Positions 2,609-25,000 of a stretch of DNA of 64,000 nucleotides are shown here, one piece after another (position 1 is the stretch's first letter; each line of letters begins with the position of its first letter). This DNA is from Actinomycetes bacterium (GTDB taxonomy: Bacteria > Actinomycetota > Aquicultoria > UBA3085 > Oleimmundimicrobiaceae). Below the pieces are notes generated by a model that was given only the letters and a program-made list of their open reading frames with translations, searched no databases and was not told the DNA's origin. Location: the NCBI GenBank assembly GCA_030614255.1, contig JAUWKI010000004.1:4-64003 (forward strand). Reading direction: 5' to 3'. The translations under genes and the position numbers were made by a program.

Positions 2609-2752
2609 TAGTCGGGTGTCTGTTAGTCGGTAGTGGAGAGTTTGTTAGTTTGTTGGATGGTTTGTTTGTTTTTCCGACTCTAAGCCCTCCACTCTAAGCT
2701 CTGTACACTCTTCACTTTTAACTATTAGCCATCTGCCATACGCCATCAGCCG
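2609..2752. repeat. Interspersed repeat copy (AGTCGG-TAG module + CCATCTGCCATACGCCATCAGCC module) in the metF-hdrC gap
   Basis: tagtcgggtgtctgttagtcggtag ... gccatctgccatacgccatcagcc. Confidence 0.6.
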
Positions 2753-7442: not shown

Positions 7443-7462
7443 TCCTTTTAGATTTATTGGGA

Positions 7463-8806
7463 TTAAGCGCTCCAGTTTTTAAGATAAGATGGTATGTCCC
7501 CGGCTTCTCGCGGACCAACTTGTATTTCCCAATCGGGAAGTTCTTCTTCCAGCTCGCCACTTATCTGAGCCACATATCCCGGGATTACCATCTTGCGATG
7601 TTTAACTTTGTCGGTAATTCCACAACGCTTCATGAATGGGCCAATATTTTCAGGTATAAACTTACCAGCAGCCCAAGCAGTTAAAACTGATAGTCCCTCC
7701 ACATCCATTATGCAAATCCAGGACGGAATCTTACTCGCCTCCACTTCACCTGAAACGGTGAAGTAAGTTAAGGAAAAGTTTGTAGTAAGAAGCACGGGTG
7801 AATTTTCATCTGGCTCCCCGACGGGATAAATCCCTTCATCAACCTGCATTGGCTTCTGCGGATCGGTATAGATATTTTGGCGTAAAACATATAAGGGAAA
7901 CGCCTTCCATGGTTCAAGATCGCTTACGACAATAACTCCCGCATACTTCATTATGCCAACGCCAGCGGCCACCGCTTCCATGTAAGGATCGTCATACATC
8001 TCGCAAGGAAACGTGATGATTGGGTAACCGAGTGGTTTGTATTTTTTCTTAAGAGCCGCACGTCTTATGAAGGTTGCATCCCTTAAGCTATCCCTTATAT
8101 TCCTTGAGCCAGGGTCTAACACTATATCTTTAATCCCCTTGGCGGTTACTTTTTCCACTAAGTCCGAAAGCATGCTCAGATCTTTGGCAACAACCGCCAG
8201 CGGACAATTACTTTCTTTGGCAAAAGCAGTCATCTGCTCAAAATTGCTCTCATTGGCCGCATAAATAAGTGGCTTAGTTTGAGCACAAACAGAAAGAGCA
8301 GCTTTCATCATCTCAGGATTATCTGTGATTAGCACCAAAGGAAAACCGGTCTCCACGGCTCCCTTAACTAACTCGGTAAACTTAGTCGAATCATTTGAAG
8401 ATGACTTAACAGCCACCAAGTCGGCTCGAAGAAACTGGCCCACCCTTTCAAATTGGGAGTTCTTCAACTGGGCAAATTTTTCATCAATTTTCGCCTTATC
8501 CATTCCATCATCTACAAGAACAGCCAGACCCGGTTGGTGGTAGAAAGTCTTCTCGTGACGAAAGAGCACCGCCTCCTCACCAATTTTAAGAGCTTTATCC
8601 CCAACACCTATGGTCACAAGACGTATGGGTGGGGCCGAAGCCTCGGTTAGCTCAGTCTTTGCTTCCTCTGAAACGTAAGGGCATGCATCCAGCTGCGCTT
8701 GTCCTGCCACAAGTTTCATAGCAAAAGCAAGACAGGTAGGTATCCCGCATTCGCCACAATTTTTTTGAGGTAGTTTTTTGTAAATATCAAGTCCAGTTAA
8801 CGCCAT
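7463..8806 (-). CDS. acsC: Corrinoid iron-sulfur protein large subunit (CFeSP gamma, AcsC/CdhE)
   Basis: N-terminal CGECGIPTCLAFAMKL [4Fe-4S] motif. 447 aa. Adjacent to acsB. Confidence 0.9.
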   Translation of the reverse strand: MALTGLDIYKKLPQKNCGECGIPTCLAFAMKLVAGQAQLDACPYVSEEAKTELTEASAPPIRLVTIGVGDKALKIGEEAVLFRHEKTFYHQPGLAVLVDDGMDKAKIDEKFAQLKNSQFERVGQFLRADLVAVKSSSNDSTKFTELVKGAVETGFPLVLITDNPEMMKAALSVCAQTKPLIYAANESNFEQMTAFAKESNCPLAVVAKDLSMLSDLVEKVTAKGIKDIVLDPGSRNIRDSLRDATFIRRAALKKKYKPLGYPIITFPCEMYDDPYMEAVAAGVGIMKYAGVIVVSDLEPWKAFPLYVLRQNIYTDPQKPMQVDEGIYPVGEPDENSPVLLTTNFSLTYFTVSGEVEASKIPSWICIMDVEGLSVLTAWAAGKFIPENIGPFMKRCGITDKVKHRKMVIPGYVAQISGELEEELPDWEIQVGPREAGDIPSYLKNWSA

Positions 8807-8820
8807 ATAAAAAAATCTCC

Positions 8821-8912
8821 TTTCAGTCGATTTTAGCTACCAGCTATCAGTCGTCAGCTTCCAGGCGATACGCAATACTGCTGGCCCCTGGTGACTGGAT
8901 GCTGGGGGCTGA
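8821..8912. repeat. Interspersed repeat copy (CTACCAGCTATCAGTCGTCAGC variant) in the acsB-acsC gap
   Basis: Heptad-like CAGC-AT-CAG units matching the 1-112 and 2724-2752 modules. Confidence 0.5.
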
Positions 8913-11114
8913 TTAGAACATCGGTGGCATCTCCAAAGCTGGATGACTCACTTTCTGCATATGAGCTATAACCTCTTCTTCAGTAGTTGCCACGGTTTCA
9001 TCAGCTATCTTGTCAACAAAGTCAGAAACGCCCTCTTCTTCCGCACGTTTTTGAAGCTCTGAACGAAGAGTGTCTTTCAACTCTTTGGGCATCCAAACGA
9101 GTCTCTTTAAGCCACCATCGGCGGATATAAACTTCTTGCTGGTAATATACTGGCGACCTATACCGATGAATCCGGGTAGCTGAACACCGCCGCCGACCGT
9201 ACCGGCGAGGGTCGAAAATTTCATCCCGCAAGGAGTCATCTCGGGAAACTCCCTATTTACTATCATTACTCCGTTTGTCATCGGAAGAACCGCGACCACA
9301 CACTCAAAACAACCACACGAGGTCATCGGGTCTTCCATCATAGAATAGGCGTTAAAGCGCTCAAGAGACTGATTGGATTTTGCAAAGACAAACTCATTGA
9401 CATTTTTCCACTGGCCTTTGACCGCATCTATCGTATCGCCTTTTTTAACCGGCTGGTTAGGCCCCGTCGGATTGATTTCATAGGCTGCCTTGCCATCAAG
9501 CCAGTTATACGCCCCACAAAGACCCAGTCTCTCAGGCGTAATTATGCAGACGTGGTTCGGAGCAAAACTCTGACATAAGGTACAGGAATAAAAGGTATCA
9601 ACGTTTTCATCGGTCATACCGCGCACCCTTTCATCTCTGTGACGGTAGGTTTTTCTCGCTTCCTCCATCATCCGGTCAACCTTTTCAAGATCGGTGTAGA
9701 TTGTAACTTGAGCCTTATCCACAATTGCGGGGTAATCCGCGGCAAGTTTTGCGATAAGTATCTTTCCAAAGTGATGAAATTTAAAACCAGCATTCTTTGC
9801 CTTTTTGCTAACTCTTACCCATATGATGTTACGCTGACCCATATGAAATATTCCCTCAGCACCATTAATCATATGGTGAACTTGCCTCTCCAGAACCGAT
9901 TCAAAATCCTCTTGCATCTTTCTGCCAGCAACATCTATCACTACGCCGAGGGGAAGTCTTTCGCCTTCTTTGATATCATCTATATCTTTGCCAACTACCT
10001 CGATTTTGCCATTTTCCACCTCATCCATCTCTTTCATCCTCAAGAATTCGAAGGCGTGTGTCTTTGTTCCACCAAATTCTACGTAGGTATCTTCCCCTCT
10101 AATTCTCTCTCCTTCAAAAGCAGAGCCGTAGGCCACGGGTATATCAATCTTAGTAACCTGAACCTTAAGCCCTCTTACCTCAATTGCTCTTTCCACTAAT
10201 TTATCGTGGGGAATATTTGACACAACATGCTCGTAAGTACAGATTCCTGTTGGAAGAATCTGGGGAATATCAGTATCGGCAATGGTCGGAAAACCATAAT
10301 TTACAGCTCCCACCGCTTGAGCATATTTTTCATCTTCAACTTCGCCCAAAGCCAGAACGAAAGCAAAGATTCTGTTCTTGTTGTAGAGCAACACTTTCCT
10401 AAAATCTCCGGGCTTAACCCCACCGAAAGAAAGCGCAGCCCGAGTTGCAAAACCCGCGGAAAAAACGGTCGCGGTAATATCTTTGCCGAAGGGAACGAGG
10501 CGGGTTTCCCAACCCATCTGGATACCTTCTTCTTTGAGTTGCTCGGCCATGCTTTTTCCATCAGCCGAAGCCGACATGAAGACGTAAATATTTTTCTCCT
10601 GAAGCTCTCGAGCAATCTTTACCGCTATTTCATTTGTGGGAGCTGCTCCAACGCATGCGGCAAAACCGGGCGCTGAGCCATCAACAAATTCGATGCCTCT
10701 TTCTCTCATTATGACGTCATCGGCCGCACCCAACCAAAGATTATCATCAGTTGGTTCCGATGACATTGTATAAGGAGGGGACTCCACATACTTAATTGCC
10801 TCGATAATTTCATCCATAAAGAGCGTTGCCATACCGGCATCCAAAGCAGGAGCCAGATACGGCAGCCAGACTTTCTCCGATGGAACAGAAGGGAGCAAAC
10901 TCTTGGAATATGCCAAAACCTTCTCCATATCACCAAGAGTAGAAACTGCCATTCCGGTAATTCCATAAATTACAGGCAAATAATACCCCGTGTTTGGAAA
11001 CTCCACTTTTTTATCGGGTCCATGTTTCTTTAAAGCTTCTTTAAGATTTTCTTCCGCCCTCTTAGCTATCTTATGGGCGCCCCTTATGGCAGCCGAAGCG
11101 ATAATCTTAGACAA
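8913..11114 (-). CDS. acsB: Acetyl-CoA synthase (CODH/ACS A-cluster subunit)
   Basis: 733 aa. CGCFEC A-cluster motif, plus CTLCQSF and CGAYNW regions. Overlaps the cooS stop by 8 nt. Confidence 0.9.
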   Translation of the reverse strand: MSKIIASAAIRGAHKIAKRAEENLKEALKKHGPDKKVEFPNTGYYLPVIYGITGMAVSTLGDMEKVLAYSKSLLPSVPSEKVWLPYLAPALDAGMATLFMDEIIEAIKYVESPPYTMSSEPTDDNLWLGAADDVIMRERGIEFVDGSAPGFAACVGAAPTNEIAVKIARELQEKNIYVFMSASADGKSMAEQLKEEGIQMGWETRLVPFGKDITATVFSAGFATRAALSFGGVKPGDFRKVLLYNKNRIFAFVLALGEVEDEKYAQAVGAVNYGFPTIADTDIPQILPTGICTYEHVVSNIPHDKLVERAIEVRGLKVQVTKIDIPVAYGSAFEGERIRGEDTYVEFGGTKTHAFEFLRMKEMDEVENGKIEVVGKDIDDIKEGERLPLGVVIDVAGRKMQEDFESVLERQVHHMINGAEGIFHMGQRNIIWVRVSKKAKNAGFKFHHFGKILIAKLAADYPAIVDKAQVTIYTDLEKVDRMMEEARKTYRHRDERVRGMTDENVDTFYSCTLCQSFAPNHVCIITPERLGLCGAYNWLDGKAAYEINPTGPNQPVKKGDTIDAVKGQWKNVNEFVFAKSNQSLERFNAYSMMEDPMTSCGCFECVVAVLPMTNGVMIVNREFPEMTPCGMKFSTLAGTVGGGVQLPGFIGIGRQYITSKKFISADGGLKRLVWMPKELKDTLRSELQKRAEEEGVSDFVDKIADETVATTEEEVIAHMQKVSHPALEMPPMF

Positions 11115-13068
11115 TTTCCAAATCCCTCCTCATTTCCATATCGTAAAGCACTCTTTCTTTCTCGCGATCTATCCCTAAAGCTTTTCTCTTCTTATCTATA
11201 TTTTTAATTAATATCTTAGCCATCTCAACGGGATTGGGCTCGTAAAACCACTTGCCGCCCGTCGTCTCCTCAATCTCTTTAAAAAGATAATCGGACAACA
11301 CCTCGCTATTGGTTGTCGGAAAAGAGACACCAAAACCAACAGGAACTCCACTGGAAACAAAATACTGGCCAATGGCTACGGCTTTCTCGCTCATCCACTC
11401 GGGGGCGCAACCCGCGGCTGGAATTTCATCTAAGTCCTCACCAAGACCGCCCTCTTTAACTATCTCCGAAGCGGCCATGAGGATTCGGCTGTTGTCCACG
11501 CATGAACCGCAATGAAGCACGGGAGGAATACCTACTGCCTCGCAAACCTCTCGCAAACCGGCGCCCGCAAGCTCAGCGGCTTCGGGAATGAGCAATCCTT
11601 CTTTTGCGCAGCTTATCGCGGCGCACCCGGTCACCAGAACAAGCACGTTGTTTGCGATGAGCTCTTTAACCACCGTGGTATGCACGTAATCGTGTTTAAC
11701 CCGAGGGTTGTTACATCCCACAACACCAACAACACCCCTAATTCTGCCGTTAATTATATTATCGTTTAACGGCCTGTAAGAGGCGCGGAACCGTCCACCA
11801 AGCAAATACTTTATGGTCTCATGAGAAAAACCCGCAACAAGCTCGATTACTTCCTTGGGGATATCAACCTTGCCTCTCTTGGAATAATTTTTAATTGCTC
11901 GCCTGACAATGTCTTTTGCCACCTCCGGCGCCTTGTGATGATCAAATTCCATATGTGTGGCACCCAAAATTTTTCCCTTCGCCGAGGTAGTGATTACCTC
12001 AGTGTGATAACATTTAGCCACGGTGGGTAACGACTGCATGATGCATTGAACATCAACAACCATGGCATCGACCGCACCAGTACAGATAGCCAGCTCTTGT
12101 TGGAGAAAGTTACCGGCTACTGGAATACCTTTTCGCATCAAAAGCTCATTTGCCGTGCAACATATGCCGGCAATATTTATGCCCTTGGCGCCCGCCTTTT
12201 TAGCTTCTTTAATCAGCTCGGGGTCCCTCGCCGCCGCGACAATCATCTCAGAAAGTAACGGTTCATGACCGTGAACTATTAGATTAACTTGATTCTCCTT
12301 AAGAACTCCTAAGTTTACCTTTGACCTGACCGGAGTGGGAATACCAAAGAGGATATCCTGTAGTTCTGTCGCCATCATAGAACCGCCCCAACCATCGGCC
12401 AAAGAAGTTCGACAGCCATGAAGCAGGATGTTCTTATAATCCTGATCGACTCCCATGTGGGTTCGATGCATTGTTTCTACTATCTCGCGGTCCACCCCGC
12501 GAGGAGATATGCCTTCTCTTCTCCAGCGCTCCTGCCTCTTCTCCGGAGCTTGTTTTACAAGAGTTGTTTCACCTTGCTGCTTACCCATCTCGGCAAGAGC
12601 TTTCTCGCCCAGCTCCAGAGCTATCTGATTTTTATCCTTACCCTCTATATTGATATCAAAAACTTTAGCCAAAGCATGCAGCTTCGTCTCATTTTTTATC
12701 TCATAACCGGGTGCTTCACCCTTCGCCGTAGCGATAAAGGTAAATATAACCTCTCTTGCATGATCCGAATGCGCGGCCGCGCCGGCGGCTATCATTCGAG
12801 CAAAGTTTCTGGCCGCTACTGTAGAAGCGGTGGCACCGCAGACTCCCGTCCTCGTCTCGGTCACCCTACAAGGACCCATTGAACATATTTTGCAACACGT
12901 TCCGCCCGAGCCAAACGAACAGGACTTTAGAGAGGCAACTCTTTCAAAAGCAGTCTCTGCCCCATCCTTTTTGGCCTTATCTATCATTTTAGCACTTGCC
13001 GTACAGCTGGTTTGTGTGCTTGCCGCAGGGTAAAACTTGCTTTCTCCGTTTTTGCTTTGCTTTTTCAT
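11107..13068 (-). CDS. acsA: Ni-CO dehydrogenase catalytic subunit (CooS/AcsA)
   Basis: CCKICSMGPCR B/D-cluster motif, hybrid-cluster-like C-cluster ligands. 653 aa. Confidence 0.9.
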   Translation of the reverse strand: MKKQSKNGESKFYPAASTQTSCTASAKMIDKAKKDGAETAFERVASLKSCSFGSGGTCCKICSMGPCRVTETRTGVCGATASTVAARNFARMIAAGAAAHSDHAREVIFTFIATAKGEAPGYEIKNETKLHALAKVFDINIEGKDKNQIALELGEKALAEMGKQQGETTLVKQAPEKRQERWRREGISPRGVDREIVETMHRTHMGVDQDYKNILLHGCRTSLADGWGGSMMATELQDILFGIPTPVRSKVNLGVLKENQVNLIVHGHEPLLSEMIVAAARDPELIKEAKKAGAKGINIAGICCTANELLMRKGIPVAGNFLQQELAICTGAVDAMVVDVQCIMQSLPTVAKCYHTEVITTSAKGKILGATHMEFDHHKAPEVAKDIVRRAIKNYSKRGKVDIPKEVIELVAGFSHETIKYLLGGRFRASYRPLNDNIINGRIRGVVGVVGCNNPRVKHDYVHTTVVKELIANNVLVLVTGCAAISCAKEGLLIPEAAELAGAGLREVCEAVGIPPVLHCGSCVDNSRILMAASEIVKEGGLGEDLDEIPAAGCAPEWMSEKAVAIGQYFVSSGVPVGFGVSFPTTNSEVLSDYLFKEIEETTGGKWFYEPNPVEMAKILIKNIDKKRKALGIDREKERVLYDMEMRRDLEIV

Positions 13069-15614
13069 TTGTTGGCTCCTCCTTTTGAAATACTTACGGC
13101 AATGAGCCGGTGTTGCGGACTCTTTAATTTTGAATCTATGCTATCGCTTGCTAGAATACCCCGTTTATCGTGGCAACTGGGCATAAAAAACATCCCCTTG
13201 GGTAAGAAATCAAGTATCTTCGCCGAGGTTGTAACCTTGCCCCGTCTCGACTTAACCGTGACCTCGCAACCATCCTCGATTTTCAAAGACGTAGCATCCT
13301 CTGAGTTGAAAATGACATAATCTCCCGCATTCGGTTCAAGCCTGGATAGTTTGGAATTTTTTGTTCTAATCCCATCATAAAACCCAAATGTTGTTTCTCC
13401 AACAATTAAAGTATAAGGATATTTTTTATCGGGCTCTTCACCAGAAACCTTGGGTTCCACTAAGATAAAGCTATATGTATCTCTTTCGATTTTCTTTGGA
13501 ACGAAAACCAGAGACTTTATTTCCTTGGCAATCTCCTTTTCAGAAGAGTAGCCCATAGTATAATTCATTCTTTTAGACAAAGCGGTTACCGTCTTCCAAT
13601 CAGTTTCGGCCAAAGGTTCAATAACTGCCCTAACCTCTTTCGTTCGATATTCCATATTAACAATGGTTCCATTGCTCTCGGCTAAAGTTATCCCTGGCAA
13701 CACAACATCGGCCAACTTTGCGGTTTCCGTCAAAAAAGTATCTTGGGCCACCAGGAAGTCTAAGGATGAGAGCGACTTGGCCACACTGGAAGAGTTAGGA
13801 AATTGAGTAACCGGATCCGCTCCAACTATATACATCCCAAGAATAGATGAGCCCATTCCGTCCAACATTTCCTTAATAGAAAGTCCGGCCTTTTTAGGAA
13901 GTTTAACTCCCCAAGTCTTCTCAAAATCGTTCCTGGCTTCATCTATTTTTCTTACACCCGGATAAAATTCGGCCAAAGCTCCCATGTAAACCGTGCCCCG
14001 CAGATTAGAAGAGAGGAGGCACGGGAGAACGCTCGCTCTAGTTTTACCTGTTAAAAGAGAGATATTGGCAATCAATTCCATGGTTTGAGGGCTTACCGTC
14101 TCAGCCCCAAAGACTATAACCGTCTTTTTTCCTTCGCCATAGAGCTTTGCGGCTCTCTTTAAAACATCTTTAGAAATTCCCGACTCTTTTTCTACCATTT
14201 CCATCTTTAATTTACCAAGAGACTTCTTTAAATCCTCAAATTTCCCGCATTTCTTGGCAAATTCTTCATCGTAAACTTTACCGTCAAGTAACTCTTTCAA
14301 AAGCCCGCTTAAAATAAACTCGTCGGAGCCGGCCTTTGACTGAATATATATATCGGCTTTCTCGGAAATTTTTGTCCTTCCGGCATCTACAACTACCAGC
14401 TTTGCTCCGCTTGAAAGCGCTCTTTTTACGGCCACACCCACACGAGGATAGGCCACTGTAACATCCGCGTTCACGAGCAAGAGAGTATCGACTTCCTCAA
14501 TATCTTCCATTGAAACAACAGCTCCATCTCCCAGCGCTTCATATAAATCAATCAAAGCGGGGAAACCGAGAAGCCTGGCGGAGCTATCGATGTTGTTCGT
14601 CCCGATACCGGCCCTTAAAAACTTTTGGAATAAGTAAGCAACCTCGTTTGTATTCCCTGCGCCGATAAAGCCGCCAATGCTATTTGCCCCATGAGCTTTC
14701 TTTATATCAAGAAGACGCTCTGCCGCAAACTTAATGGCCTCTTCGTAAGTACTCTCAGTTAAAATTCCGTCCTTTTTAATCAAAGGTTTTATAATTCGCT
14801 TAGGGTTTTCCACAAAATCCCATCCAAATCTACCCTTTGCACAGAGAAAGTCTCCGGGGCTCTCGCCGGTTGTTCTCATAATCTGCCCATCCACGATGCC
14901 AAATACGAGGTCACAACCACAGCCACAATAGGAACAGACCGTTTTGGTCTCTTCCATCTCCCATTCTCGCCCACGAAAACGCCTGTCGACCTCGAGTAAC
15001 GCGCCAACGGGACAAACCGCAAGACAGCTTCCACAAAAATCACAGCCCGATTCCTGCAAGGGCTTATCCAACGGTGTTGCCACCTTGGTAATCATGCCTC
15101 GCTTTATAAAATCTATGATATCCGCCCCCTGCGTTTTGCAGATTCCCACACACCGTCCGCACAAAATACAGAGATTGTAATTCCTCTCTATAAAAGGATT
15201 GCTTTTATCTATCTCATAACCGGGATCTTTCATCGAGAAACTTGTTTTCTCAATGCCAAGCTCGTAAGCGTATTTCTGAAGCTCACAAGCACCGTTTTTA
15301 TCGCAACTCATACAATCGCCAGAGTGATTTGAAAGTATTAGCTCCAGAACAAAACGTCTCGCTTCCCGAACCTTTTCTGTATTGGTATTAATCACCATTC
15401 CATTCTTAACTTTTCGAGTACATGAGGCCACGAGCCCTTTTGCTCCCTCAACTTCGACTAAACAAACCCTACACGAGCCCGTGCTAGGCAGGCATTCACA
15501 GTAACAAAGATGGGGTATGTCAATCCCTGCCATCTTGGCCGCCTGAATAATAAGCGTTCCTTCGGAAACTTTTACTTCTTTTCCATTTATCGTTACGGTG
15601 ACTTGCTCACTCAA
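13065..15614 (-). CDS. NAD-dependent formate dehydrogenase alpha-like / NuoG-like molybdopterin-family protein with degenerate active site
   Basis: N-terminal 2Fe-2S domain. His-ligated [4Fe-4S] (HSGDCMSCDKNGAC). 2x[4Fe-4S] ferredoxin. MopB CSYCGCGC motif. Molybdopterin and dinucleotide-binding domains. The conserved VDCCARVUHGPS motif reads IDSSARLLGFPA, i.e. Sec/Cys to Leu and His to Gly. 4-nt overlap with cooS start. Confidence 0.75.
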   Translation of the reverse strand: MSEQVTVTINGKEVKVSEGTLIIQAAKMAGIDIPHLCYCECLPSTGSCRVCLVEVEGAKGLVASCTRKVKNGMVINTNTEKVREARRFVLELILSNHSGDCMSCDKNGACELQKYAYELGIEKTSFSMKDPGYEIDKSNPFIERNYNLCILCGRCVGICKTQGADIIDFIKRGMITKVATPLDKPLQESGCDFCGSCLAVCPVGALLEVDRRFRGREWEMEETKTVCSYCGCGCDLVFGIVDGQIMRTTGESPGDFLCAKGRFGWDFVENPKRIIKPLIKKDGILTESTYEEAIKFAAERLLDIKKAHGANSIGGFIGAGNTNEVAYLFQKFLRAGIGTNNIDSSARLLGFPALIDLYEALGDGAVVSMEDIEEVDTLLLVNADVTVAYPRVGVAVKRALSSGAKLVVVDAGRTKISEKADIYIQSKAGSDEFILSGLLKELLDGKVYDEEFAKKCGKFEDLKKSLGKLKMEMVEKESGISKDVLKRAAKLYGEGKKTVIVFGAETVSPQTMELIANISLLTGKTRASVLPCLLSSNLRGTVYMGALAEFYPGVRKIDEARNDFEKTWGVKLPKKAGLSIKEMLDGMGSSILGMYIVGADPVTQFPNSSSVAKSLSSLDFLVAQDTFLTETAKLADVVLPGITLAESNGTIVNMEYRTKEVRAVIEPLAETDWKTVTALSKRMNYTMGYSSEKEIAKEIKSLVFVPKKIERDTYSFILVEPKVSGEEPDKKYPYTLIVGETTFGFYDGIRTKNSKLSRLEPNAGDYVIFNSEDATSLKIEDGCEVTVKSRRGKVTTSAKILDFLPKGMFFMPSCHDKRGILASDSIDSKLKSPQHRLIAVSISKGGANK

Positions 15615-15631
15615 TTCCTCTCCTCCTTTGG

Positions 15632-16153
15632 CTATACAATTTCTATTGCACCAACTTCACAAACGGTTAAACATTGCCCGCACTTGGTGCATTTTTTATC
15701 TCTAACGTAATAGGGGTTATTGTCTGAAAGATAGGGAACCAGCTTCTCTCCCACAATTGCATCCTCGGGACAGACTTTTTTGCAAGCATCACACATCACA
15801 CATTTCTCCGGATCTATCCAGTAATTAATGAGAAGTTCACAGGAGTTATGAGAACAGTGACCATCTTTTATGTGCTCTTCATATTCATCTCTAGAAGAAG
15901 TCAAAGAGTCCTGTAAAAAATTTGCCGCGTCCTTGCCAAGCTTACATCGAGCGGTATCAATGATGTTGGAAGATGTTTTTTCTAGAACAACCATATCTCT
16001 CTCTTCACCCTCACTTTTTGTGATTCGTTCCAAGACATCGATTATCCGAGTTGTGCCAAGCATGCAAGGCAAACATTTGCCACACATCTTATCCTTGGCA
16101 AATCCCTTGAAAAATTCGAGCGTTATTAGAACGGAACAACCCTCGCTACTCAT
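15632..16153 (-). CDS. Small Fe-S protein: NuoF C-terminal-type [4Fe-4S] motif plus 2x[4Fe-4S] ferredoxin
   Basis: CGKCLPCMLGT (NADH_4Fe-4S-like) followed by CVMCDACKKVCP and CTKCGQCLTVCE. ATGA overlap with the nuoF-like gene. Confidence 0.55.
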   Translation of the reverse strand: MSSEGCSVLITLEFFKGFAKDKMCGKCLPCMLGTTRIIDVLERITKSEGEERDMVVLEKTSSNIIDTARCKLGKDAANFLQDSLTSSRDEYEEHIKDGHCSHNSCELLINYWIDPEKCVMCDACKKVCPEDAIVGEKLVPYLSDNNPYYVRDKKCTKCGQCLTVCEVGAIEIV

Positions 16154-18066
16154 GTGGCCACCCCCTGCTTGCCGGTAGGCAGGTTGGATGCAGTAGATGC
16201 GGTCTTTCGTTCAAATTCCCTGACGACACAACCGGTCGGGCACACACCAATACAAGCCCCGCATTTTTCGCAATATGACTCATCAATGTAGAATCTACTG
16301 CGCTCTTCCACAACTGCCTCATAAGAACACACTTCCTTACAAAGACCACAGAGAAGACATTCCTCCTCGATTATCCTATATCGACCGAGCGCGACGCACG
16401 CTCCGGCCGGACAATACTTATCCCTGATATGCGCCTCGTACTCATCTCTAAAATATCTGATGGTAGAGAGCACAGGGTTGGGCGCACTTTTGCCCAAACC
16501 ACAAAGGGCTGTTTCTTGAATATGTCTGCTAATACTTTCCAGGCGTTCAATATCTCCCTCTTCGCCCTTCCCCTCAACAATTCTCTCCAAAATCTTGAGC
16601 ATCTCATACGTCCCAATTCTGCAAGGCGGACACTTCCCGCAGGACTCCACCTGAGTGAAAGAGAGAAAATATCTGGAAATTTCTACCATGCAATCGGACT
16701 CATCCATCACGACAAGCCCTCCGGAACCCATCATGGCTCCAACCTCATTTAATGAATCAAAGTCAACGGGCAAATCCAGATATTCTTTTGGAATACAACC
16801 GCCACTAGGCCCTCCTATCTGAACAGCTTTAAACTCTTTGTCTCCTAAAATCCCACCGCCTATATCGTAGACAATTTCTCGAATGGTGATCCCCATCGGG
16901 ACTTCGATTAGCCCCGTGTTTTTAACCTTCCCGGTAAGAGCAAATATTTTTGTTCCCGGGGAGCTCTTCGTGCCAATGGAGGTATACCATTTAGCCCCCT
17001 TGACCAATATCGGAGGAATATTCGCAAGGGTCTCGACGTTATTTAAGACCGTCGGCTTACCCCAGAGACCCTTCTCCACCGAACGAGGAGGTGTCGTTCG
17101 AGGCATGCCCCTCTTGCCTTCAACAGAAAACATCAGCGCGGTGGATTCTCCACATATAAAAGCACCCGCTCCACGTTTTATTTCCAAATCGAAATCAAAA
17201 CCACTTCCGAGTATGTTCTCACCCAAAAGACCAAGTTCCCTTGCTTGGTTAATAGCTATCGTTAGATTCTTAACCGCCAAGGGATATTCTTGTCTTACAT
17301 ATATAAACCCCTCTTTGCAATTGCCCAGAGCATAGGCTCCTATTATCATGCCTTCGATGACAGAATGAGGGTCACCTTCCAAAACGCTTCTATCCATGAA
17401 AGCACCAGGGTCACCTTCGTCGCCGTTGCAAACGATGTACTTCACGTCGCTCTCTGTTTTTCGGCCTCCCTCCCACTTTCTTCCCGTCGGGAAACCCGCT
17501 CCACCTCGACCCCTCAGGTTGGATTTCTTAATCTTTTCTATAACTTCATCGGGAGCCATATCATTTAGCACCTTTGCCAGCGCTCCATAACCACCAACCG
17601 TGATATAATCATCCATACTGGTGGGATCAATATGGCCACAATTTCTTAAAACTATGCGCTGTTGTTTGCCGTAAAATAGAATTTCTTCCTCCTTAACAGC
17701 AAGTTCTCCGGTGATGGGGTCAACCACCTGTAGTCGGTCGATAACCTTGCCACGATTTACGGTGAGATCAATTATTTTTGCTGTATCGAACGGATCGACC
17801 TTTTGATAAAAGACATCCAACGGCTCTACGATTACAATGGGACCCTTCTCGCACAAACCCTGACAGCCCGTAGGCCTTATCTCAAAATCAATGCCTTGTT
17901 TTATAGCTTCCGCTTTAAAAGCTTCCACAACCTCTTGCGCACCGGAAGCGCGACACCCAGTCCCACTACAGACTCGAATTATTTTCTTTTTTTGTTTAGC
18001 CCGTTCACTACATATCTTCTCTCTTAAGACACCTAGCTCTTTAGTCTTTTTGAGTCTACTCATCAT
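16150..18066 (-). CDS. NuoF-like NAD(P)H-binding flavoprotein (HydB/HndC/FdhB type) with N-terminal thioredoxin-like 2Fe-2S domain and C-terminal ferredoxin domains
   Basis: GRGGAGFPTGRKWE FMN/NADH motif. ESCGKCPPCRIG [4Fe-4S]. Two C-terminal CxxCxxCxxxCP motifs. Confidence 0.85.
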   Translation of the reverse strand: MMSRLKKTKELGVLREKICSERAKQKKKIIRVCSGTGCRASGAQEVVEAFKAEAIKQGIDFEIRPTGCQGLCEKGPIVIVEPLDVFYQKVDPFDTAKIIDLTVNRGKVIDRLQVVDPITGELAVKEEEILFYGKQQRIVLRNCGHIDPTSMDDYITVGGYGALAKVLNDMAPDEVIEKIKKSNLRGRGGAGFPTGRKWEGGRKTESDVKYIVCNGDEGDPGAFMDRSVLEGDPHSVIEGMIIGAYALGNCKEGFIYVRQEYPLAVKNLTIAINQARELGLLGENILGSGFDFDLEIKRGAGAFICGESTALMFSVEGKRGMPRTTPPRSVEKGLWGKPTVLNNVETLANIPPILVKGAKWYTSIGTKSSPGTKIFALTGKVKNTGLIEVPMGITIREIVYDIGGGILGDKEFKAVQIGGPSGGCIPKEYLDLPVDFDSLNEVGAMMGSGGLVVMDESDCMVEISRYFLSFTQVESCGKCPPCRIGTYEMLKILERIVEGKGEEGDIERLESISRHIQETALCGLGKSAPNPVLSTIRYFRDEYEAHIRDKYCPAGACVALGRYRIIEEECLLCGLCKEVCSYEAVVEERSRFYIDESYCEKCGACIGVCPTGCVVREFERKTASTASNLPTGKQGVAT

Positions 18067-18571
18067 CCTCTTCCCCTTTATTTTTAAGGGTAGCGATTAT
18101 CTTTTTTGGATTTCTTTCCTTTGAAACATTCTCGTTTACCACCACAACGGGGGCAAGTGCGCAACACCCCACACAACTCACTGTTTCAAGCGTGAACTCA
18201 AAGTCATCGGTCGTTTCACCGGCTTCTATGCCAAGCTCTTCTTCCAGCCCATCAAGAATTACTTTTGAACCACGAACGTGACAGGCAGTACCCGTGCAAA
18301 CTTTAATTACGTTTTTGCCTCGAGGAGTGAAATAAAAGTGTGCATAAAATGAAGCGACTCCGTAAACATGGGCTAGGGGGAGATCAAGTTTCTCGGCAAT
18401 AATCCTGAATGCTTCTTCAGGCAAAAAACTAAATTCCTTTTGAATATCCTGAAGGGCGTGCACAAGCACTCCCCTTTTGCCCTCATGCTTTTCCAGCAAC
18501 TCAAAAATACGGTTGGCATCTATTTGAATCTTCGTCTCCTCTTTTTTTGTACCGCAAACGCAATTAGACAT
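18056..18571 (-). CDS. NuoE-like thioredoxin-fold [2Fe-2S] protein (HydC/HndA/FdhG type)
   Basis: CTGTACHVRGS ... SCVGCCALAP 2Fe-2S ligands. 171 aa. Confidence 0.85.
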   Translation of the reverse strand: MSNCVCGTKKEETKIQIDANRIFELLEKHEGKRGVLVHALQDIQKEFSFLPEEAFRIIAEKLDLPLAHVYGVASFYAHFYFTPRGKNVIKVCTGTACHVRGSKVILDGLEEELGIEAGETTDDFEFTLETVSCVGCCALAPVVVVNENVSKERNPKKIIATLKNKGEEDDE

Positions 18572-18586
18572 TACGCTTCCTCCAAA

Positions 18587-19525
18587 CTAGCCCATTAACT
18601 CATCAATGAACCTTTTTGTTAATTTAACAGCTTCAGGATGCCTCATAACTAAGATATCGCCCCCAGCTATTAACATGCTAACCGCGGTCATAAACTCCCA
18701 GAGAATCCCCCTCTTTTCGGGATCTCCCCAGTTTGAATCATCTTCTGTTTTCACTTCTTTGGTTTTCCAAACTTCTCTGCCAAAATCGCATAACGTCGGC
18801 ATTTGAGTCATCTCATCATTCTGTTGAAGAGCTGCGAGTCTTAATCTCTCGATGATTGAGTAGACATACTCCAATCCATAACCTAAGGCCGCACCGCTTG
18901 GGTCCATCACCAATCTATCAGCGTCCAAGCCTAGCTGAGTCATCAATATATTTAACTGCTTGGCCATATTTACATCAATTGGGGAAAGCCCTGAAACATT
19001 GTGTTTGTAACCAATGGCCGCAGCCGTTATTGATTTGTAGTTGTCTTCCTGAGATGGGCCCAATATAACTCTCTGCCCTTCTGCAACCTCGGCAACTTTC
19101 TTTAAAACCTCTCCGTCACTCTCAACGTTACCGCTTCCATAGACACATACCGGAACAGATACTACTTCCAGAATCGCCTTGGCCATCTCGGCAGCTTTTG
19201 CGGGATCCTTATTCTCGCCATTTGGATCGGTGCTAACAAGCCGCAATAAAATCATATCCGCCCCATACTCATCCTGGCACTTTTTGGCCCAAGCAACGGG
19301 GTCATTCAATACATCCTTGAATGGTTTAAGAACAGCACCTGGCCAATTATCTGGAGCTATATCATAAACCTCCATAGCTATAACCGGTCTTCTTGGCATC
19401 TCACCTTCAAAAAAGTGAAATGGAAGTGTGGCCTCTCCGCCGACCACAACCTGGTTGCTTTCTTTACCCACAGCAACCTCGCGAACCTTTCCTTGATATG
19501 TATCCACTGGTGCCTGAAATGCCAT
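18587..19525 (-). CDS. acsD: Corrinoid iron-sulfur protein small subunit (CFeSP delta, AcsD/CdhD)
   Basis: VVVGGEATLPFHFFEG region typical of AcsD TIM-barrel subunit. 312 aa. Confidence 0.85.
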   Translation of the reverse strand: MAFQAPVDTYQGKVREVAVGKESNQVVVGGEATLPFHFFEGEMPRRPVIAMEVYDIAPDNWPGAVLKPFKDVLNDPVAWAKKCQDEYGADMILLRLVSTDPNGENKDPAKAAEMAKAILEVVSVPVCVYGSGNVESDGEVLKKVAEVAEGQRVILGPSQEDNYKSITAAAIGYKHNVSGLSPIDVNMAKQLNILMTQLGLDADRLVMDPSGAALGYGLEYVYSIIERLRLAALQQNDEMTQMPTLCDFGREVWKTKEVKTEDDSNWGDPEKRGILWEFMTAVSMLIAGGDILVMRHPEAVKLTKRFIDELMG

Positions 19526-19575
19526 TTTGTATCTCCTTCCAAAACCAAATTTTTTCCTTATATCTCTCTACAACT

Positions 19576-20424
19576 TTATGCCTGCATTCTAGCTGCTTTA
19601 ATCGTATTTTTTAAGAGCATCGTTATGGTCATCGGGCCAACTCCACCGGGGACGGGAGTAATGGCCGAAGCCTTCACGCTCACGCTTTCAAAATCAACAT
19701 CTCCCGCAAGCTTCCCGTTCTCAAGCCGATTTACCCCGACATCGATTACAACAGCGCCTTCTTTTATCATCTCGCCTTTAATCATTTTCGGTTTGCCCAC
19801 TGCGGCCACCAGCACGTCTGCTCTTTTGGTGTGGAAACTTAAGTCTTTGGTCTTTGAATGGCAGATGGTAACTGTCGCGCTCTTCGATAACAACATGAGT
19901 GAAATCGGTTTTCCAACAATGTTGCTCCTTCCAACAACCACAGCTTCTTTCCCCTTCAAATCTATTCCCGCACGCTCAAGTAAGATCATTATTCCGTGCG
20001 GCGTACAAGGAAGAAATGTCTCTTCTCCTATAACTAGCTTTCCGATATTTTCCGGATGAAAACCATCCACATCTTTAGCAGGATTTATGGCATAAAGGAC
20101 CTTTTTTTCATTAATTTGCTTGGGCAAAGGGAGTTGCGCCAATATTCCATTTATCTTGTCGTCCACATTTAATTTATTGACCAAAACCAGCAATTCTTCC
20201 TCGGAAACATCCGCGGGCAAAACGTATTTCTCCGAGTAAATGCCAGTTTGAGCACAGCCTTTCTCTTTTTGCCCAACATAAACTTTAGAAGCAGGATCAT
20301 CTCCGACAATAACAACCGCCAACCCCGGCACGATACCTTCTTTCTTTAGCTGTGCTACCTCTTCTGTCATCTCTTGACGAAGCGAGGCAGCAATTGCCTT
20401 CCCATCAATAATCTTTGCTGACAT
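19576..20424 (-). CDS. folD: Bifunctional methylene-THF dehydrogenase / methenyl-THF cyclohydrolase
   Basis: KIIDGKAIA ... PGLAVVIVGDDPAS ... DVDGFHP motifs. 282 aa. Confidence 0.9.
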   Translation of the reverse strand: MSAKIIDGKAIAASLRQEMTEEVAQLKKEGIVPGLAVVIVGDDPASKVYVGQKEKGCAQTGIYSEKYVLPADVSEEELLVLVNKLNVDDKINGILAQLPLPKQINEKKVLYAINPAKDVDGFHPENIGKLVIGEETFLPCTPHGIMILLERAGIDLKGKEAVVVGRSNIVGKPISLMLLSKSATVTICHSKTKDLSFHTKRADVLVAAVGKPKMIKGEMIKEGAVVIDVGVNRLENGKLAGDVDFESVSVKASAITPVPGGVGPMTITMLLKNTIKAARMQA

Positions 20425-20443
20425 CTATTTACTCCTTTCGAGT

Positions 20444-21214
20444 TTAAAGATTAAGCTTCTCAATGAGCCCAGAAATTGCTCGAAAAGCACAAGAGTCACC
20501 GGGCAATTCCAAAATCGGTCTTTTCTTCAAATCCATCTCTAAAATCTGCTCGTCTAATGGAAGGGTCCCCAGAAGATTAAGGTTCAACTTATCTATCTCC
20601 TCCTTTAAAATGGGACTCAGCCCTTCTTTGGGAACACGATTTATTATCAAATATGTTTCTTCGACTTTAAGCTCAAGCTCTTTGACTAAATCTCTAATTC
20701 TGGCGGCTGCCCAAATGCCTCGAGGGCTTGTATCCGATATTAATAAAAGACGCTCCACCCCATAAGTCGTTCTCCTACTTAAATGTTCCATTCCGGCTTC
20801 ATTGTCCATAATCACATAACGATAATTTTTCGCCAGTATGTCCATATATCTCCGTAAAATATTATTTACATAACAGTAGCAACCGGGCCCTTCGGGCCTA
20901 CCCATGGTCAACAAATCAAATCCTGATGCCTCAACCAAAATTTCTTGGATTTTAAGCTCCAGATAAGCATCTTTGGACATCCCGGACGGGATTGAGCTAA
21001 CGTTCTTGGTTATCTCTTCTCTTACCCCACCGATGGAATCTACCACCTTAACACCTAAAACTTCATTCAAATTGGAGTTAGCATCAGCGTCCACCGCAAG
21101 AATCGGAGTCATTTTCTTTTCAAGTAAGTATTTAATTATCAAGGCACTTATGGTCGTCTTTCCTGTACCGCCCTTGCCCGCAACCGCTATCGTAAAAGCC
21201 ATCAAGTTCACCAC
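20444..21214 (-). CDS. cooC: CODH/ACS nickel-insertion ATPase (CooC/AcsF family)
   Basis: IAVAGKGGTGKTT deviant Walker A. 256 aa. Between RACo and folD. Confidence 0.85.
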   Translation of the reverse strand: MVNLMAFTIAVAGKGGTGKTTISALIIKYLLEKKMTPILAVDADANSNLNEVLGVKVVDSIGGVREEITKNVSSIPSGMSKDAYLELKIQEILVEASGFDLLTMGRPEGPGCYCYVNNILRRYMDILAKNYRYVIMDNEAGMEHLSRRTTYGVERLLLISDTSPRGIWAAARIRDLVKELELKVEETYLIINRVPKEGLSPILKEEIDKLNLNLLGTLPLDEQILEMDLKKRPILELPGDSCAFRAISGLIEKLNL

Positions 21215-21217
21215 TTG

Positions 21218-23137: not shown

Positions 23138-23155
23138 TTAAACACCCTTTTCCTT

Positions 23156-24850: not shown

Positions 24851-25000
24851 AATAAATCCCCCTTTAATTGGCAAACAAAAGTAACTATAGATGAGATTAT
24901 TTTAGTTTGACCTCTTAAAAATAACAACCACTTTGCCCTCAACGATACAAATTTGAAGGTAAGTGGCCAAATAATGCATTCACTGGTATGGATTTTAAAC

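Follow-up and report, generated by a model that had tools for sequence, protein, structure and literature searches.

Five known or predicted systems resemble parts of the locus considered here. In the HydABCSL NiFe-hydrogenase of Acetomicrobium mobile, a Type 3 member of the Bfu family (7t2r/7t30; PMC9304861), HydB is the best solved match of the BfuB flavoprotein described below. The A. mobile HydA, a non-catalytic subunit with a NuoG/FdhA-like fold, matches residues 3–540 of the FdhA-like protein (7t2r_A; E = 1e-62, TMt 0.73); it has been described as lacking the H cluster, which provides a precedent for a non-catalytic BfuA (Schut et al., PMC9304861). Catalysis in the A. mobile enzyme resides in separately encoded subunits that feed BfuA, as is proposed here, but the catalytic partner is a small/large pair of NiFe hydrogenase subunits, a place that the CooS of CODH/ACS would take here. 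The A. mobile BfuA is also shorter (692 aa) and does not have the full four-domain FdhA fold, and HydABCSL has no stand-alone copy of the BfuB C-terminus, which is present here.

The idea of a CO-linked Bfu enzyme is not wholly new, since a different and uncharacterized "Codh-Bfu" (A–F) has already been predicted in Acetohalobium arabaticum and Clostridium cellulovorans (Schut et al. 2022, PMC9304861). As at the present locus, bfuABC-type genes are clustered with cooS, and a CO-linked bifurcating reaction was proposed, with a suggested role in CO oxidation or detoxification (PMC9304861). Codh-Bfu is classed as Type 2; its BfuA lacks A3 and A5, it has three extra subunits that include CooF-like Fe-S proteins, its cooS lies between bfuB and bfuA, and only four sequences are known, all from Firmicutes (PMC9304861). 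The locus described here likewise has cooS within a bfuABC cluster, with neither a BfuA devoid of A3 and A5 nor extra CooF-like subunits. Its BfuA is long, with all five clusters and a dead pterin domain, CooF is absent, a copy of the BfuB C-terminus is present, and in five phyla the arrangement forms part of the acs operon. One other locus (L017), encoding a Crp/CooA-like regulator, a CooF-like protein, CooS, BfuC, BfuB and a 284-aa BfuA, looks like the same type as the predicted Codh-Bfu.

NAD-dependent or bifurcating formate dehydrogenases (FDHs) with NuoEF-like subunits, such as FdsABG of Rhodobacter capsulatus (6tg9) and the Type 1 "Fdh-Bfu" of Carboxydothermus hydrogenoformans (PMC9304861), share the gene order NuoE-NuoF-FdhA, and the large subunit finds its closest matches among them, both in sequence (1e-117) and in fold (TM 0.89–0.90). 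An enzyme of this type is the evident ancestor of the module. Canonical members, however, keep the Sec/Cys-His pair, catalytic arginine and MGD motifs that the FdhA-like protein lacks. They also come without a separately assigned small subunit, and cooS follows none of them (0/57). NuoG (Nqo3) of complex I is likewise FdhA-derived and has lost the pterin, acting as an Fe-S wire and scaffold beside NuoE and NuoF, but the FdhA-like protein falls under the NuoG family cut-off, and its partner flavoprotein is of the HydB and not the NuoF type. The CooF-type ferredoxin partners of CooS, multi-[4Fe-4S] proteins encoded beside cooS that carry electrons to or from the CODH dimer, are presumed to be analogous in function to the small protein of this module, although the latter is homologous to the HydB C-terminus and not to CooF.

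NuoEFG-like COGs have been reported in the gene context of Wood-Ljungdahl-linked CODHs (Inoue et al. 2019, PMC6344411), and nuoEF or nuoEFG genes near CODH/ACS have been noted in passing (PMC6344411, PMC6305446, PMC7325909, PMC8671834). No prior description of the module architecture was found in the literature searched (a 2021 paper on the Wood-Ljungdahl pathway in Actinobacteria lay outside the search results), and "Oleimmundimicrobium" gave no literature match.

Organization of the locus

The module lies on the minus strand of the 64-kb window (the whole stretch of DNA analysed), within a Wood-Ljungdahl operon ordered fhs, RACo, cooC, folD, acsD, four-gene module, cooS, acsB, acsC (Table 1). 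The upstream string fhs-RACo-cooC-folD (19576..24874) has intergenic gaps of 3–50 nt, and 15 nt separate acsD from the module. The NuoE-like gene overlaps the BfuB gene by 11 nt, which in turn overlaps the small gene by 4 nt; a 17-nt gap with a AAAGGAGGAG ribosome-binding site then precedes the TTG start of the FdhA-like gene. At the next junction, stop and start codons overlap as ATGA and a AAAGGAGGAG site lies inside the 3' end of the FdhA-like gene, while the end of cooS overlaps acsB by 8 nt. Stop/start overlaps together with a ribosome-binding site within the upstream gene fit co-translation. Promoter and terminator scans of positions 6000–25500 gave matches not clearly above shuffle expectation, with none at the module junctions, and neither prove nor disprove a single transcript. 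Farther downstream in the same operon are metFV and hdr-like genes.

Table 1. Genes of the Wood-Ljungdahl operon, with positions in the window.
Feature	Position	Strand	Product or domains
acsC, corrinoid Fe-S protein large subunit	7463..8806	-	Pfam FeS, CdhD
acsB, acetyl-CoA synthase subunit	8913..11114	-	Pfam CODH_A_N, CdhC, ACS_CODH_B_C
cooS (CooS/AcsA, Ni-CODH catalytic subunit)	11107..13068	-	653 aa
FdhA-like / BfuA-like gene	13065..15614	-	849 aa, TTG start
Small protein, stand-alone paralogue of BfuB C-terminus	15632..16153	-	173 aa
HydB/BfuB-type flavoprotein gene	16150..18066	-	638 aa
NuoE/BfuC-like gene	18056..18571	-	171 aa, thioredoxin-like [2Fe-2S] protein
acsD, corrinoid Fe-S protein small subunit	18587..19525	-	Pfam CdhD
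folD	19576..20424	-	Pfam THF_DHG_CYH
cooC	20444..21214	-	Pfam CbiA
RACo	21218..23137	-	RACo domains (Pfam)
fhs	23156..24874	-	Pfam FTHFS

An ORF check returned the coordinates and the overlapping junctions up to cooS, within the acs operon, just as the original prediction had given them. Pfam domains also agree with its description of a NuoE/NuoF-type module with extra ferredoxin domains and a small NuoF-C-terminus/ferredoxin protein.

The flavoprotein and the small protein

The BfuC-like protein carries Pfam 2Fe-2S_thioredx (PF01257; E = 4.8e-48) and scores above the cut-off of the NCBIfam NuoE model NF005722 (147.1 vs 141); it corresponds to the NuoE-like thioredoxin-fold [2Fe-2S] protein encoded alongside the other subunits in the Bfu family. 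BfuB has the Pfam domains Complex1_51K, NADH_4Fe-4S, 2Fe-2S_thioredx and Fer4, with [2Fe-2S] at the N-terminus and a 2x[4Fe-4S] ferredoxin domain at the C-terminus, along with the FMN/NAD(H) domain, an N3-type [4Fe-4S] site and a His/Cys/Cys motif. Its residues 30–614 align to the HydB of solved bifurcating enzymes (E = 1e-238 to 1e-198), with 7t2r_B first (1e-238), followed by 8a6t_B, 7q4v_B, 7p5h_B and the NfnB 9n5u_B; plain NuoF aligns only to residues 149–547. The cysteine ligands are conserved in the alignment, including those of the N-terminal [2Fe-2S] and C-terminal 2x[4Fe-4S] sites, the extra features that mark BfuB in the Bfu family (Schut et al. 2022), and the protein is about 62% identical to the proven bifurcating HydB of A. 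mobile (7t2r). Judged by its sequence, BfuB belongs over its full length to the HydB/BfuB type for which bifurcation has been shown by experiment, and this HydB-type architecture is a strong marker of bifurcation, short of proof. No NADP-binding GltD-like domain was found among the module proteins in a Pfam scan.

The 173-aa protein is 39% identical to residues 454–612 of the adjoining BfuB (E = 4e-37), and its best solved matches are HydB C-termini, such as residues 475–627 of 8a6t_B. It contains the N3-type [4Fe-4S], His/Cys/Cys and 2x[4Fe-4S] motifs, with the cysteine and histidine ligands kept across 18–20 related loci. A Pfam scan of the operon proteins found no CooF (Fer4_11-type) gene.

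The FdhA-like subunit

In the FdhA-like protein (Pfam Fer2_4, NADH-G_4Fe-4S_3, Fer4, Molybdop_Fe4S4, Molybdopterin, Molydop_binding), a molybdopterin-oxidoreductase (MopB) fold comes after one [2Fe-2S] and four [4Fe-4S] sites. The cluster motifs comprise one [2Fe-2S] set, one His/3Cys set and three 4Cys sets, including the MopB FS0; all of the 20 Fe-S ligands are kept and are invariant in 40 group members. These sites correspond to clusters A1–A5 of the NuoG/HydA-like Fe-S subunit of the Bfu family, and the protein matches the HydA chains 7t2r_A, 8a6t_A and 7p5h_A. In some NuoG proteins the N7 cluster, the equivalent of FS0/A5, is off-path, and retention of FS0/A5 does not prove a place on the electron path. 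An AF2 model (pLDDT 83, and >90 over most of the MopB domain) has the four-domain MopB fold with an N-terminal NuoG-like Fe-S region, and its best Foldseek matches are the FdsA-type FDH alpha subunits 7vw6_A, 9ktl_A and 6tg9_A (TMq 0.89–0.90).

The catalytic site, by contrast with the clusters, is gone. The active-site segment reads SSARL-LG-FPA, compared with HCARL-CH-AST in 69 canonical homologues, with Leu-Gly in place of the Sec/Cys-His pair; this pair is present in none of the 52 Cys/Sec-less homologues and in 69/69 canonical ones. The catalytic arginine (PLRGQNNVQG) is kept in 0% of the Cys/Sec-less group, the MGD motifs GSAMTN, GSNTxExHP, GTDVA, MGxTG, TxERR and TGR..H are retained in 0–8% of its 52 members, and the QHTT and GLQWPCPDRSHPGT segments are deleted. 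The earlier suggestion of a degenerate FdhA-like subunit that has lost formate chemistry is thus borne out by the loss of the Cys/Sec-His pair, the arginine and the MGD motifs. Conservation of the MopB part is lower in the Cys/Sec-less group (mean identity 0.42) than in canonical FdhA (0.64), which is not the case for the Fe-S part (0.64 and 0.58, respectively); the MopB fold is nonetheless predicted with confidence. The protein scores under the cut-offs of both Fdh-alpha (TIGR01591; 453.1 vs 666.25 bits) and NuoG (TIGR01973; 360.9 vs 470.05 bits), nearer to FdhA (453 bits) than to NuoG (361 bits).

The nearest neighbour is always of the same class, Cys/Sec-less or canonical, for 121/121 sequences, a statement about nearest neighbours and not about strict monophyly, because UPGMA does not cleanly separate the two classes. 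A search for new conserved motifs in the dead MopB domain, such as a ligand site or interface, returned only two group-specific positions, and thus gives no hint of a new active site. Absence of the Cys-His pair is shared by many other NuoG-like proteins (profile search, 50%-identity representatives), so that pterin-site loss in this fold is not unusual by itself. The only over-long relative of the FdhA-like protein (P0121; 1405 aa) was considered as an FdhA-like/CooS fusion and rejected, as it consists of two tandem FdhA-like units and no CooS.

Linkage to cooS across phyla

The cooS product has the Pfam Prismane domain (E = 1.7e-176), scores above the TIGR01702 cut-off (658.6 vs 478 bits) and gives full-length alignments with solved CODHs that take in the Cys-rich stretch at the N-terminus (6t7j_B; E = 6e-206, residues 20–632). 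A comparison of the gene neighbourhoods of FdhA-like and canonical FdhA genes found cooS directly downstream in 17/17 loci that have the Cys/Sec-less FdhA-like gene and sequence extending far enough downstream to be scored, against 0/57 canonical FdhA loci. Even the conservative table (17/19 vs 0/57) gives p = 4e-15 by Fisher test, and the arrangement is far beyond chance. Canonical members include 46 with an in-frame TGA (Sec) and 25 with Cys.

The string BfuC-BfuB-small-FdhA-like-CooS is invariant in all 17 loci, often with overlapping stop and start codons between module and cooS, while the other acs genes reorder around it and fhs, folD, cooC, RACo, acsD and metF are moved or absent. It occurs in at least five phyla (Actinomycetota, Bacillota, Chloroflexota, Desulfobacterota and Acetothermia), with Ammonifex thiophilus (Bacillota; L081) as a cultured carrier. 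In one Acetothermia locus (L060), the module and cooS have no adjacent acsB, and a separate canonical NuoE-NuoF-FdhA set with FdhD and MobA adjoins the module.

Proposed function and alternative readings

The reading we prefer, which on the sequence evidence stands at about an even chance, is that the four genes encode a Bfu-type (HydABC-like) flavoprotein/Fe-S module that is the built-in redox partner of CooS in CODH/ACS. BfuB would bind FMN and NAD(H) and BfuC one [2Fe-2S] cluster, while the FdhA-derived BfuA, without a pterin site or formate chemistry, would be only a five-cluster electron wire and docking scaffold, comparable to NuoG in complex I and to HydA, devoid of the H cluster, in the NiFe-HydABCSL hydrogenase. 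Three further [4Fe-4S] clusters would come from the 173-aa protein, which probably bridges to the CooS dimer and replaces CooF in that job. The original prediction of a complex linking the NAD(P)H pool to CODH/ACS is strengthened by the HydB-type BfuB and the invariant gene string. What the analysis shows is the gene content, which cofactor sites are kept or lost, and the conserved cooS linkage; its physical association and bifurcation, like the stoichiometry and the role of the small subunit, are still what we infer.

The reaction would be 2 CO2 + NADH + reduced ferredoxin (2 e-) + 3 H+ <-> 2 CO + NAD+ + oxidised ferredoxin + 2 H2O. The CO2/CO couple, at -520 mV, lies below both NADH and ferredoxin, and it is unclear why such low-potential reactions use a Bfu enzyme (Schut et al., PMC9304861). 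Working toward acetogenesis, the module would confurcate NADH and ferredoxin, which is thermodynamically possible only because acetyl-CoA synthase holds CO very low, and would halve the ferredoxin cost of the carbonyl branch; the argument rests on an assumed low steady-state CO. Working toward acetate oxidation, it would pass electrons from CO to both NAD+ and ferredoxin. A tentative extension, to which we give about a one-in-three standing, is that CODH/ACS of these lineages does not depend on ferredoxin alone but belongs to a CODH/ACS-Bfu supercomplex, in which NADH supplies half of the carbonyl electrons by confurcation with ferredoxin and acetyl-CoA synthesis provides the pull. A dead formate dehydrogenase would have been recruited as its scaffold and a duplicated HydB C-terminus as its connector; in acetate oxidisers the coupling would be able to run in reverse.

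The FMN/NAD(H)-binding NuoF core, the NuoE and the conserved cooS link are also consistent with a simple non-bifurcating NAD(P)H:CODH oxidoreductase (CO + NAD+ -> CO2 + NADH), for which ferredoxin is not obligatory; CO oxidation with NAD+ is strongly exergonic (from the potentials in PMC9304861), and therefore needs no coupling. The HydB-type extra domains of BfuB and its identity of about 62% to a proven bifurcating HydB make this reading unlikely, however, and NADH alone is far too weak a donor for CO2 reduction. It is rather improbable that the module is a free-standing NADH:ferredoxin (or Nfn/Stn-like) balancer, co-expressed with but not bound to CooS and with another third partner or none. 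Operon adjacency also fits co-regulation, the folD, fhs, metFV and hdr-like genes of the operon all need NAD(P)H or ferredoxin, and Stn/NfnABC, a related Bfu enzyme whose HydA-like part is non-catalytic, works as a transhydrogenase (9n5u, 8oh5, 9bov; PMC9304861). Yet cooS is always the next gene (17/17) while fhs, folD, cooC, RACo, acsD and metF vary, the module travels with cooS alone in L060, and the NADP-binding GltD-like domain is absent.

A pterin-less FdhA-like fold is also the state of NuoG (TM 0.76 to mycobacterial NuoG), other Cys-less NuoG-like proteins are numerous, and orphan nuoEFG sets have been noted in related organisms (PMC8671834, PMC6295475). The four proteins could thus be the NuoEFG NADH-input module of a complex I-like membrane enzyme encoded elsewhere, with the cooS adjacency a matter of operon history, but this is very improbable: the FdhA-like protein is under the NuoG cut-off (361 vs 470) and closer to FdhA (453 bits), NuoF does not have the HydB-type extra domains of the flavoprotein, and the strict cooS linkage is left unexplained. 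No membrane nuo subunit was found among the proteins scanned in the window (larger ORFs). It is scarcely credible that the protein acts as a formate dehydrogenase of unusual active site and supplies formate to the methyl branch, or that it is a decaying relic of such an enzyme, even though the gene lies in a Wood-Ljungdahl operon beside fhs, the protein shares its fold with NAD-dependent FDH alpha subunits, and databases often name homologues accordingly. The Sec/Cys, the histidine, the catalytic arginine and essentially all conserved pterin-binding motifs are lost in all 52 Cys/Sec-less homologues, the Fdh-alpha cut-off is not reached, and a canonical FdhA with FdhD and MobA coexists alongside in L060. 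Intact ORFs in at least 18 loci from five phyla, with Fe-S ligands conserved at 100%, speak against a relic.

Significance

Database entries for homologues of the group carry the names "formate dehydrogenase alpha subunit" or "molybdopterin-dependent oxidoreductase", and counting the Cys/Sec-less type as the pathway formate dehydrogenase or as a bifurcating FdhA-NuoEF would be a wrong annotation. The gene string, found in at least five phyla, suggests a so far uncharacterised route of electrons to CO2 fixation. Which donor supplies electrons to CODH/ACS determines how much ferredoxin, and hence how much ATP, is at the disposal of acetogenesis and syntrophic acetate oxidation, two processes that operate at the thermodynamic limit; if CODH/ACS is hard-wired to an NADH/ferredoxin module, the energy balances of many uncultured subsurface lineages would change. 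The hypothesis is directly testable in the cultured carrier Ammonifex thiophilus (L081). If the supercomplex reading is true, the Wood-Ljungdahl pathway would have in this module an energy-saving coupling site that has so far gone unrecognised, widespread among deep-subsurface Actinomycetota, Chloroflexota, Acetothermia, Bacillota and Desulfobacterota.

A Wood-Ljungdahl operon with a four-gene module before cooS

The genes discussed here are all encoded on the minus strand, where they form a single compact Wood-Ljungdahl cluster (see table). The original prediction, that a NuoE-NuoF-ferredoxin-FdhA-like module directly precedes cooS, was confirmed in its gene order, its junctions, and the lack of an active site in the FdhA-like protein. 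Within the module two junctions overlap, by 11 nt and by 4 nt, and the stop codon of the FdhA-like gene shares an ATGA with the start codon of cooS. The ribosome-binding site of cooS, AAAGGAGGAG, is located within the 3' end of the FdhA-like gene, which itself begins with TTG, is preceded by the same ribosome-binding sequence, and encodes an N-terminus that lines up with those of its homologues. A scan of positions 6000-25500 returned 33 promoter-like matches (29.7 +/- 5.2 in shuffled sequence) and 26 terminator-like matches (18.0 +/- 4.6), neither clearly above expectation, and none of either kind at the module junctions. Among the Pfam domains of the operon proteins there was no CooF-type gene.

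Genes of the Wood-Ljungdahl cluster in order of transcription
Gene	Position	Strand	Place
fhs	23156-24874	-	first in transcription order
RACo	21218-23137	-	after fhs
cooC	20444-21214	-	after RACo
folD	19576-20424	-	after cooC
acsD	18587-19525	-	after folD, before module
NuoE-like	18056-18571	-	first gene of module
NuoF-like	16150-18066	-	second gene of module
173-aa protein	15632-16153	-	third gene of module
FdhA-like	13065-15614	-	fourth gene of module, before cooS
cooS	11107-13068	-	after FdhA-like gene
acsB	8913-11114	-	after cooS
acsC	7463-8806	-	after acsB
two flavoprotein genes	6372-7442 and 4750-6375	-	after acsC
metV, metF, hdrC/hdrB-like	1172-4337	-	end of cluster

The two flavoproteins after acsC (356 aa, and 541 aa with a 2x[4Fe-4S] domain) are of the pyridine-nucleotide-disulfide-oxidoreductase type and are followed by metV, metF, and hdrC- and hdrB-like genes (113-4337 region); the arrangement resembles a methylene-THF reductase of the MetFV-Hdr type whose HdrA-like partner is split. 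Two related loci (L086 and L087) carry one large fused protein in place of the two flavoproteins. A 352-aa ORF at 113-1171 (-) had no Pfam match, and the cluster of the window showed no acsE (Pterin_bind) gene, while another locus (L083) carries one after acsC. A GAF histidine kinase and LytTR response-regulator pair (25001-27059, -) precedes the operon, and just before this pair lies a gene for a 592-aa protein (27351-29129, -). The protein carries an N-terminal 4Fe-4S domain, Fe_hyd_lg_C ([FeFe]-hydrogenase large subunit), a PF04060 Fe-S motif, and, at the C-terminus, a GGDEF diguanylate cyclase domain, and it resembles a hydrogenase-like sensor that signals through c-di-GMP. Elsewhere in the window, a CobN/Mg-chelatase homologue occupies two abutting ORFs (48547-50907 and 50908-52458, +; profile positions 1-657 and 661-1089), flanked by ABC/CbiQ transporter genes and a ChlI/VWA-type gene, and represents either a natural split or a frameshift.

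An FdhA-like subunit with a lost catalytic site and a retained Fe-S wire

NuoG is the classic case of pterin-site loss in the fold of formate dehydrogenase, and many other Cys-less NuoG-like representatives show that such loss is not rare in itself. The Sec/Cys-His position reads HCARL-CH-AST in 69 of 120 homologues and SSARL-LG-FPA in the window protein; the other 51 homologues (about 750-890 aa) also lack the Cys/Sec-His pair and have L, Y, H, T, A or S followed by G or S. In this Cys/Sec-less group the catalytic Arg (PLRGQNNVQG) and the pterin-binding GSAMTN, GSNTxExHP, GTDVA, MGxTG, TxERR and TGR..H signatures are retained at 0-8%, and several FdhA signature segments are deleted. Retention is 90% for the canonical invariant residues of the N-terminal Fe-S region and 100% for the Fe-S ligands. 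The protein is thus predicted to be a formate dehydrogenase without an active site, with bit scores under the curated cut-offs for both Fdh-alpha (453 vs 666) and NuoG (361 vs 470). Cys/Sec-less sequences share a mean pairwise identity of 0.42 in the MopB part (canonical FdhA, 0.64) and of 0.64 in the Fe-S part (canonical FdhA, 0.58), so that the alignments indicate relaxed constraint on the former catalytic domain and full constraint on the electron wire. In the AlphaFold2 model, pLDDT exceeds 90 over most of residues 220-849, and the model superposes best on the alpha subunits of NAD-dependent FDH (TM 0.89-0.90), followed by mycobacterial NuoG (0.76) and by A. mobile HydA (TMt 0.73); judged by this predicted fold, the MopB domain is not decaying. 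The closest relative, at 92% identity, comes from Candidatus Oleimmundimicrobium sp., of a genus in Actinomycetota, class Aquicultoria. One homologous protein (P0121, 1405 aa) contains an FdhA-like unit lacking the Cys-His pair (residues 1-820) and then a second, partial unit that restarts with a 2Fe-2S domain at residue 835; it is either a genuine fusion or two tandem copies annotated as a single gene.

A HydB-type flavoprotein and a copy of its C-terminus

The NuoF-like protein (638 aa) carries, by Pfam, an N-terminal thioredoxin-like [2Fe-2S] domain, an FMN/NAD(H) domain, an N3-type [4Fe-4S] domain, and a C-terminal two-cluster ferredoxin domain. Over residues 30-614 it aligns to B subunits of solved enzymes for which bifurcation has been shown experimentally, foremost the A. 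mobile NiFe-HydABCSL hydrogenase (7t2r_B, E 1e-238), with further matches to the bifurcating HydABC hydrogenases (8a6t_B, 7q4v_B, 7p5h_B) and NfnB (9n5u_B), and all cysteine motifs are conserved in the alignments with solved HydB chains. Complex I NuoF and the FdsB of NAD-dependent FDH match the core only (E about 1e-105 to 1e-120), the NuoF match being confined to residues 149-547, and the protein scores under the NCBIfam NuoF cut-off (494 vs 559). The flavoprotein is accordingly assigned, from its sequence, to the bifurcating HydB type (BfuB).

The 173-aa protein is a copy of the HydB C-terminus: it shares 39% identity (E 4e-37) with residues 454-612 of the adjoining BfuB, and among solved structures it matches HydB chains best, over their C-terminal 150-160 residues. 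The N3-type cluster motif CxxCxxC...C, a His/Cys/Cys set, and two CxxCxxCxxxC motifs are all present, with ligands conserved in the 18-20 related loci examined. A stand-alone subunit of this kind occurs in no solved structure.

Conserved linkage to cooS across phyla

Comparison of gene neighbourhoods drew on 80 loci from a pattern scan, at one genome per species, and eight more from seven exact-protein look-ups. When the window proteins were mapped on them, every Cys/Sec-less locus showed, as far as its contig reaches, the order NuoE-like, HydB-like, small protein, FdhA-like, cooS, usually with acsB and acsC next. By their record titles, such loci belong to Actinomycetota (L001, L003, L032), Desulfonatronaceae (L002), Bacillota (L004, L005, L007, L009, and L081 from the cultured Ammonifex thiophilus), Chloroflexota (L082), and Candidatus Acetothermia (L060). 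In a scripted count, cooS lay directly downstream in 17/17 Cys/Sec-less loci with enough downstream sequence, as against 0/57 canonical FdhA loci (Fisher p = 4e-15, with four Cys-retaining variants counted against the hypothesis); canonical FdhA genes have an in-frame TGA in 46 cases and a Cys codon in 25. These five genes stay fixed, while fhs, folD, cooC, RACo, acsD and acsE are placed differently around them from phylum to phylum. The Acetothermia locus (JdFR-47) has the module and cooS without an adjacent acsB, back to back and on opposite strands with a canonical NuoE-NuoF-FdhA set (2888-8424, +, and 7677-17750, -), with FdhD and MobA-like cofactor-maturation genes between them; dead and live versions therefore coexist as separate systems. 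Two Dehalococcoidia loci (L046, 81-12700; L076, 371-12700) carry acsC, NuoE, NuoF, two cooC-like genes, a second NuoE-NuoF pair, and canonical FdhA, so that there is more than one kind of linkage between acs genes and Nuo-like flavoprotein genes.

Relation to known systems and proposed function

The Bfu family was defined by Schut et al., who also used four Firmicutes sequences to predict a 'Codh-Bfu' with cooS and CooF-like genes between bfuB and a short bfuA lacking the A3 and A5 clusters (Schut et al., 2022; PMC9304861). A Peptococcaceae MAG (L017, 5503-12145, -) has in a row a Crp/CooA-like regulator, a CooF-like 4Fe-4S protein, CooS, NuoE-like and HydB-like proteins, and a 284-aa BfuA-like protein (2Fe-2S plus 2x4Fe-4S), a few kb from a canonical FdhA, and appears to be of this predicted type. 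The module described here differs in having a full FdhA-derived BfuA with all five clusters, in the presence of a BfuB C-terminal paralogue and the absence of CooF, and in being embedded in an acs operon, across five phyla. NuoEFG-like COGs were reported in the gene-context network of Wood-Ljungdahl-linked CODHs (Inoue et al., 2019; PMC6344411), a nuoEF set was noted near CODH/ACS (Suzuki et al., 2018), and the abbreviations of one gene-neighbourhood figure include nuo and fdh (Merino et al., 2020). In a partial coverage of the literature, none of Schut, Inoue, Suzuki, Merino, or Smith et al. remarks on the dead FdhA-like gene, the HydB-type flavoprotein, or the small gene as a copy of the HydB C-terminus.

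The predicted set of cofactors matches a Bfu (HydABC-type) enzyme: a BfuA subunit that has kept five Fe-S clusters and lost its own catalytic site, with three [4Fe-4S] sites added by the small subunit. Among characterised enzymes, the A. mobile NiFe-HydABCSL hydrogenase comes closest; its HydA lacks the H cluster and its chemistry is carried out by separate subunits (PMC9304861). By this analogy, and because of the invariant, overlapping adjacency, CooS would be the catalytic partner, and the small subunit or the retained FS0/A5 cluster (FS0 being the MopB [4Fe-4S] site) would provide the link to the CooS dimer that a CooF-type ferredoxin makes elsewhere. We infer the whole scheme, from partner and connection to reaction and energetics, from anatomy and context. 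The reaction would be 2 CO + 2 H2O + NAD+ + oxidised ferredoxin <-> 2 CO2 + NADH + reduced ferredoxin + 3 H+. With potentials of -520 mV for CO2/CO, about -280 mV for NADH, and about -500 mV for ferredoxin (PMC9304861), the calculated mean donor potential is about -390 mV, so that confurcation toward CO is uphill by about 130 mV at standard CO and needs a CO level roughly four orders of magnitude lower than that of CO2 to become feasible; such a level is assumed here, plausibly, for CO that is channelled to acetyl-CoA synthase. The saving would be half of the carbonyl-branch ferredoxin demand, and acetate oxidisers, running the reaction in reverse, would use it to pull the cleavage of acetyl-CoA.

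Other readings of the module can be weighed against the same evidence. A non-bifurcating NAD(P)H:CODH oxidoreductase is possible, yet it leaves the retention of HydB-specific domains unexplained. A free-standing redox balancer, merely co-regulated with its neighbours, was also considered; it is compatible with the operon but at odds with the strict cooS adjacency maintained while other genes shuffle. That the module serves as a complex I input module is contradicted by the type of its flavoprotein (HydB), the scores against family models, and the linkage to cooS, and the scanned window proteins included no membrane nuo subunit. The absence of all catalytic and pterin-binding signatures contradicts a working formate dehydrogenase, and conservation across five phyla contradicts a relic.

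The module is classified as a Bfu-type enzyme with a logic close to that of NiFe-HydABCSL and the predicted Codh-Bfu, and the original proposal that it links NAD(P)H to CODH/ACS has the support that sequence and comparative data can give. Such a module is relevant to the bioenergetics of acetogenesis and acetate oxidation, and a cultured organism is available for testing.
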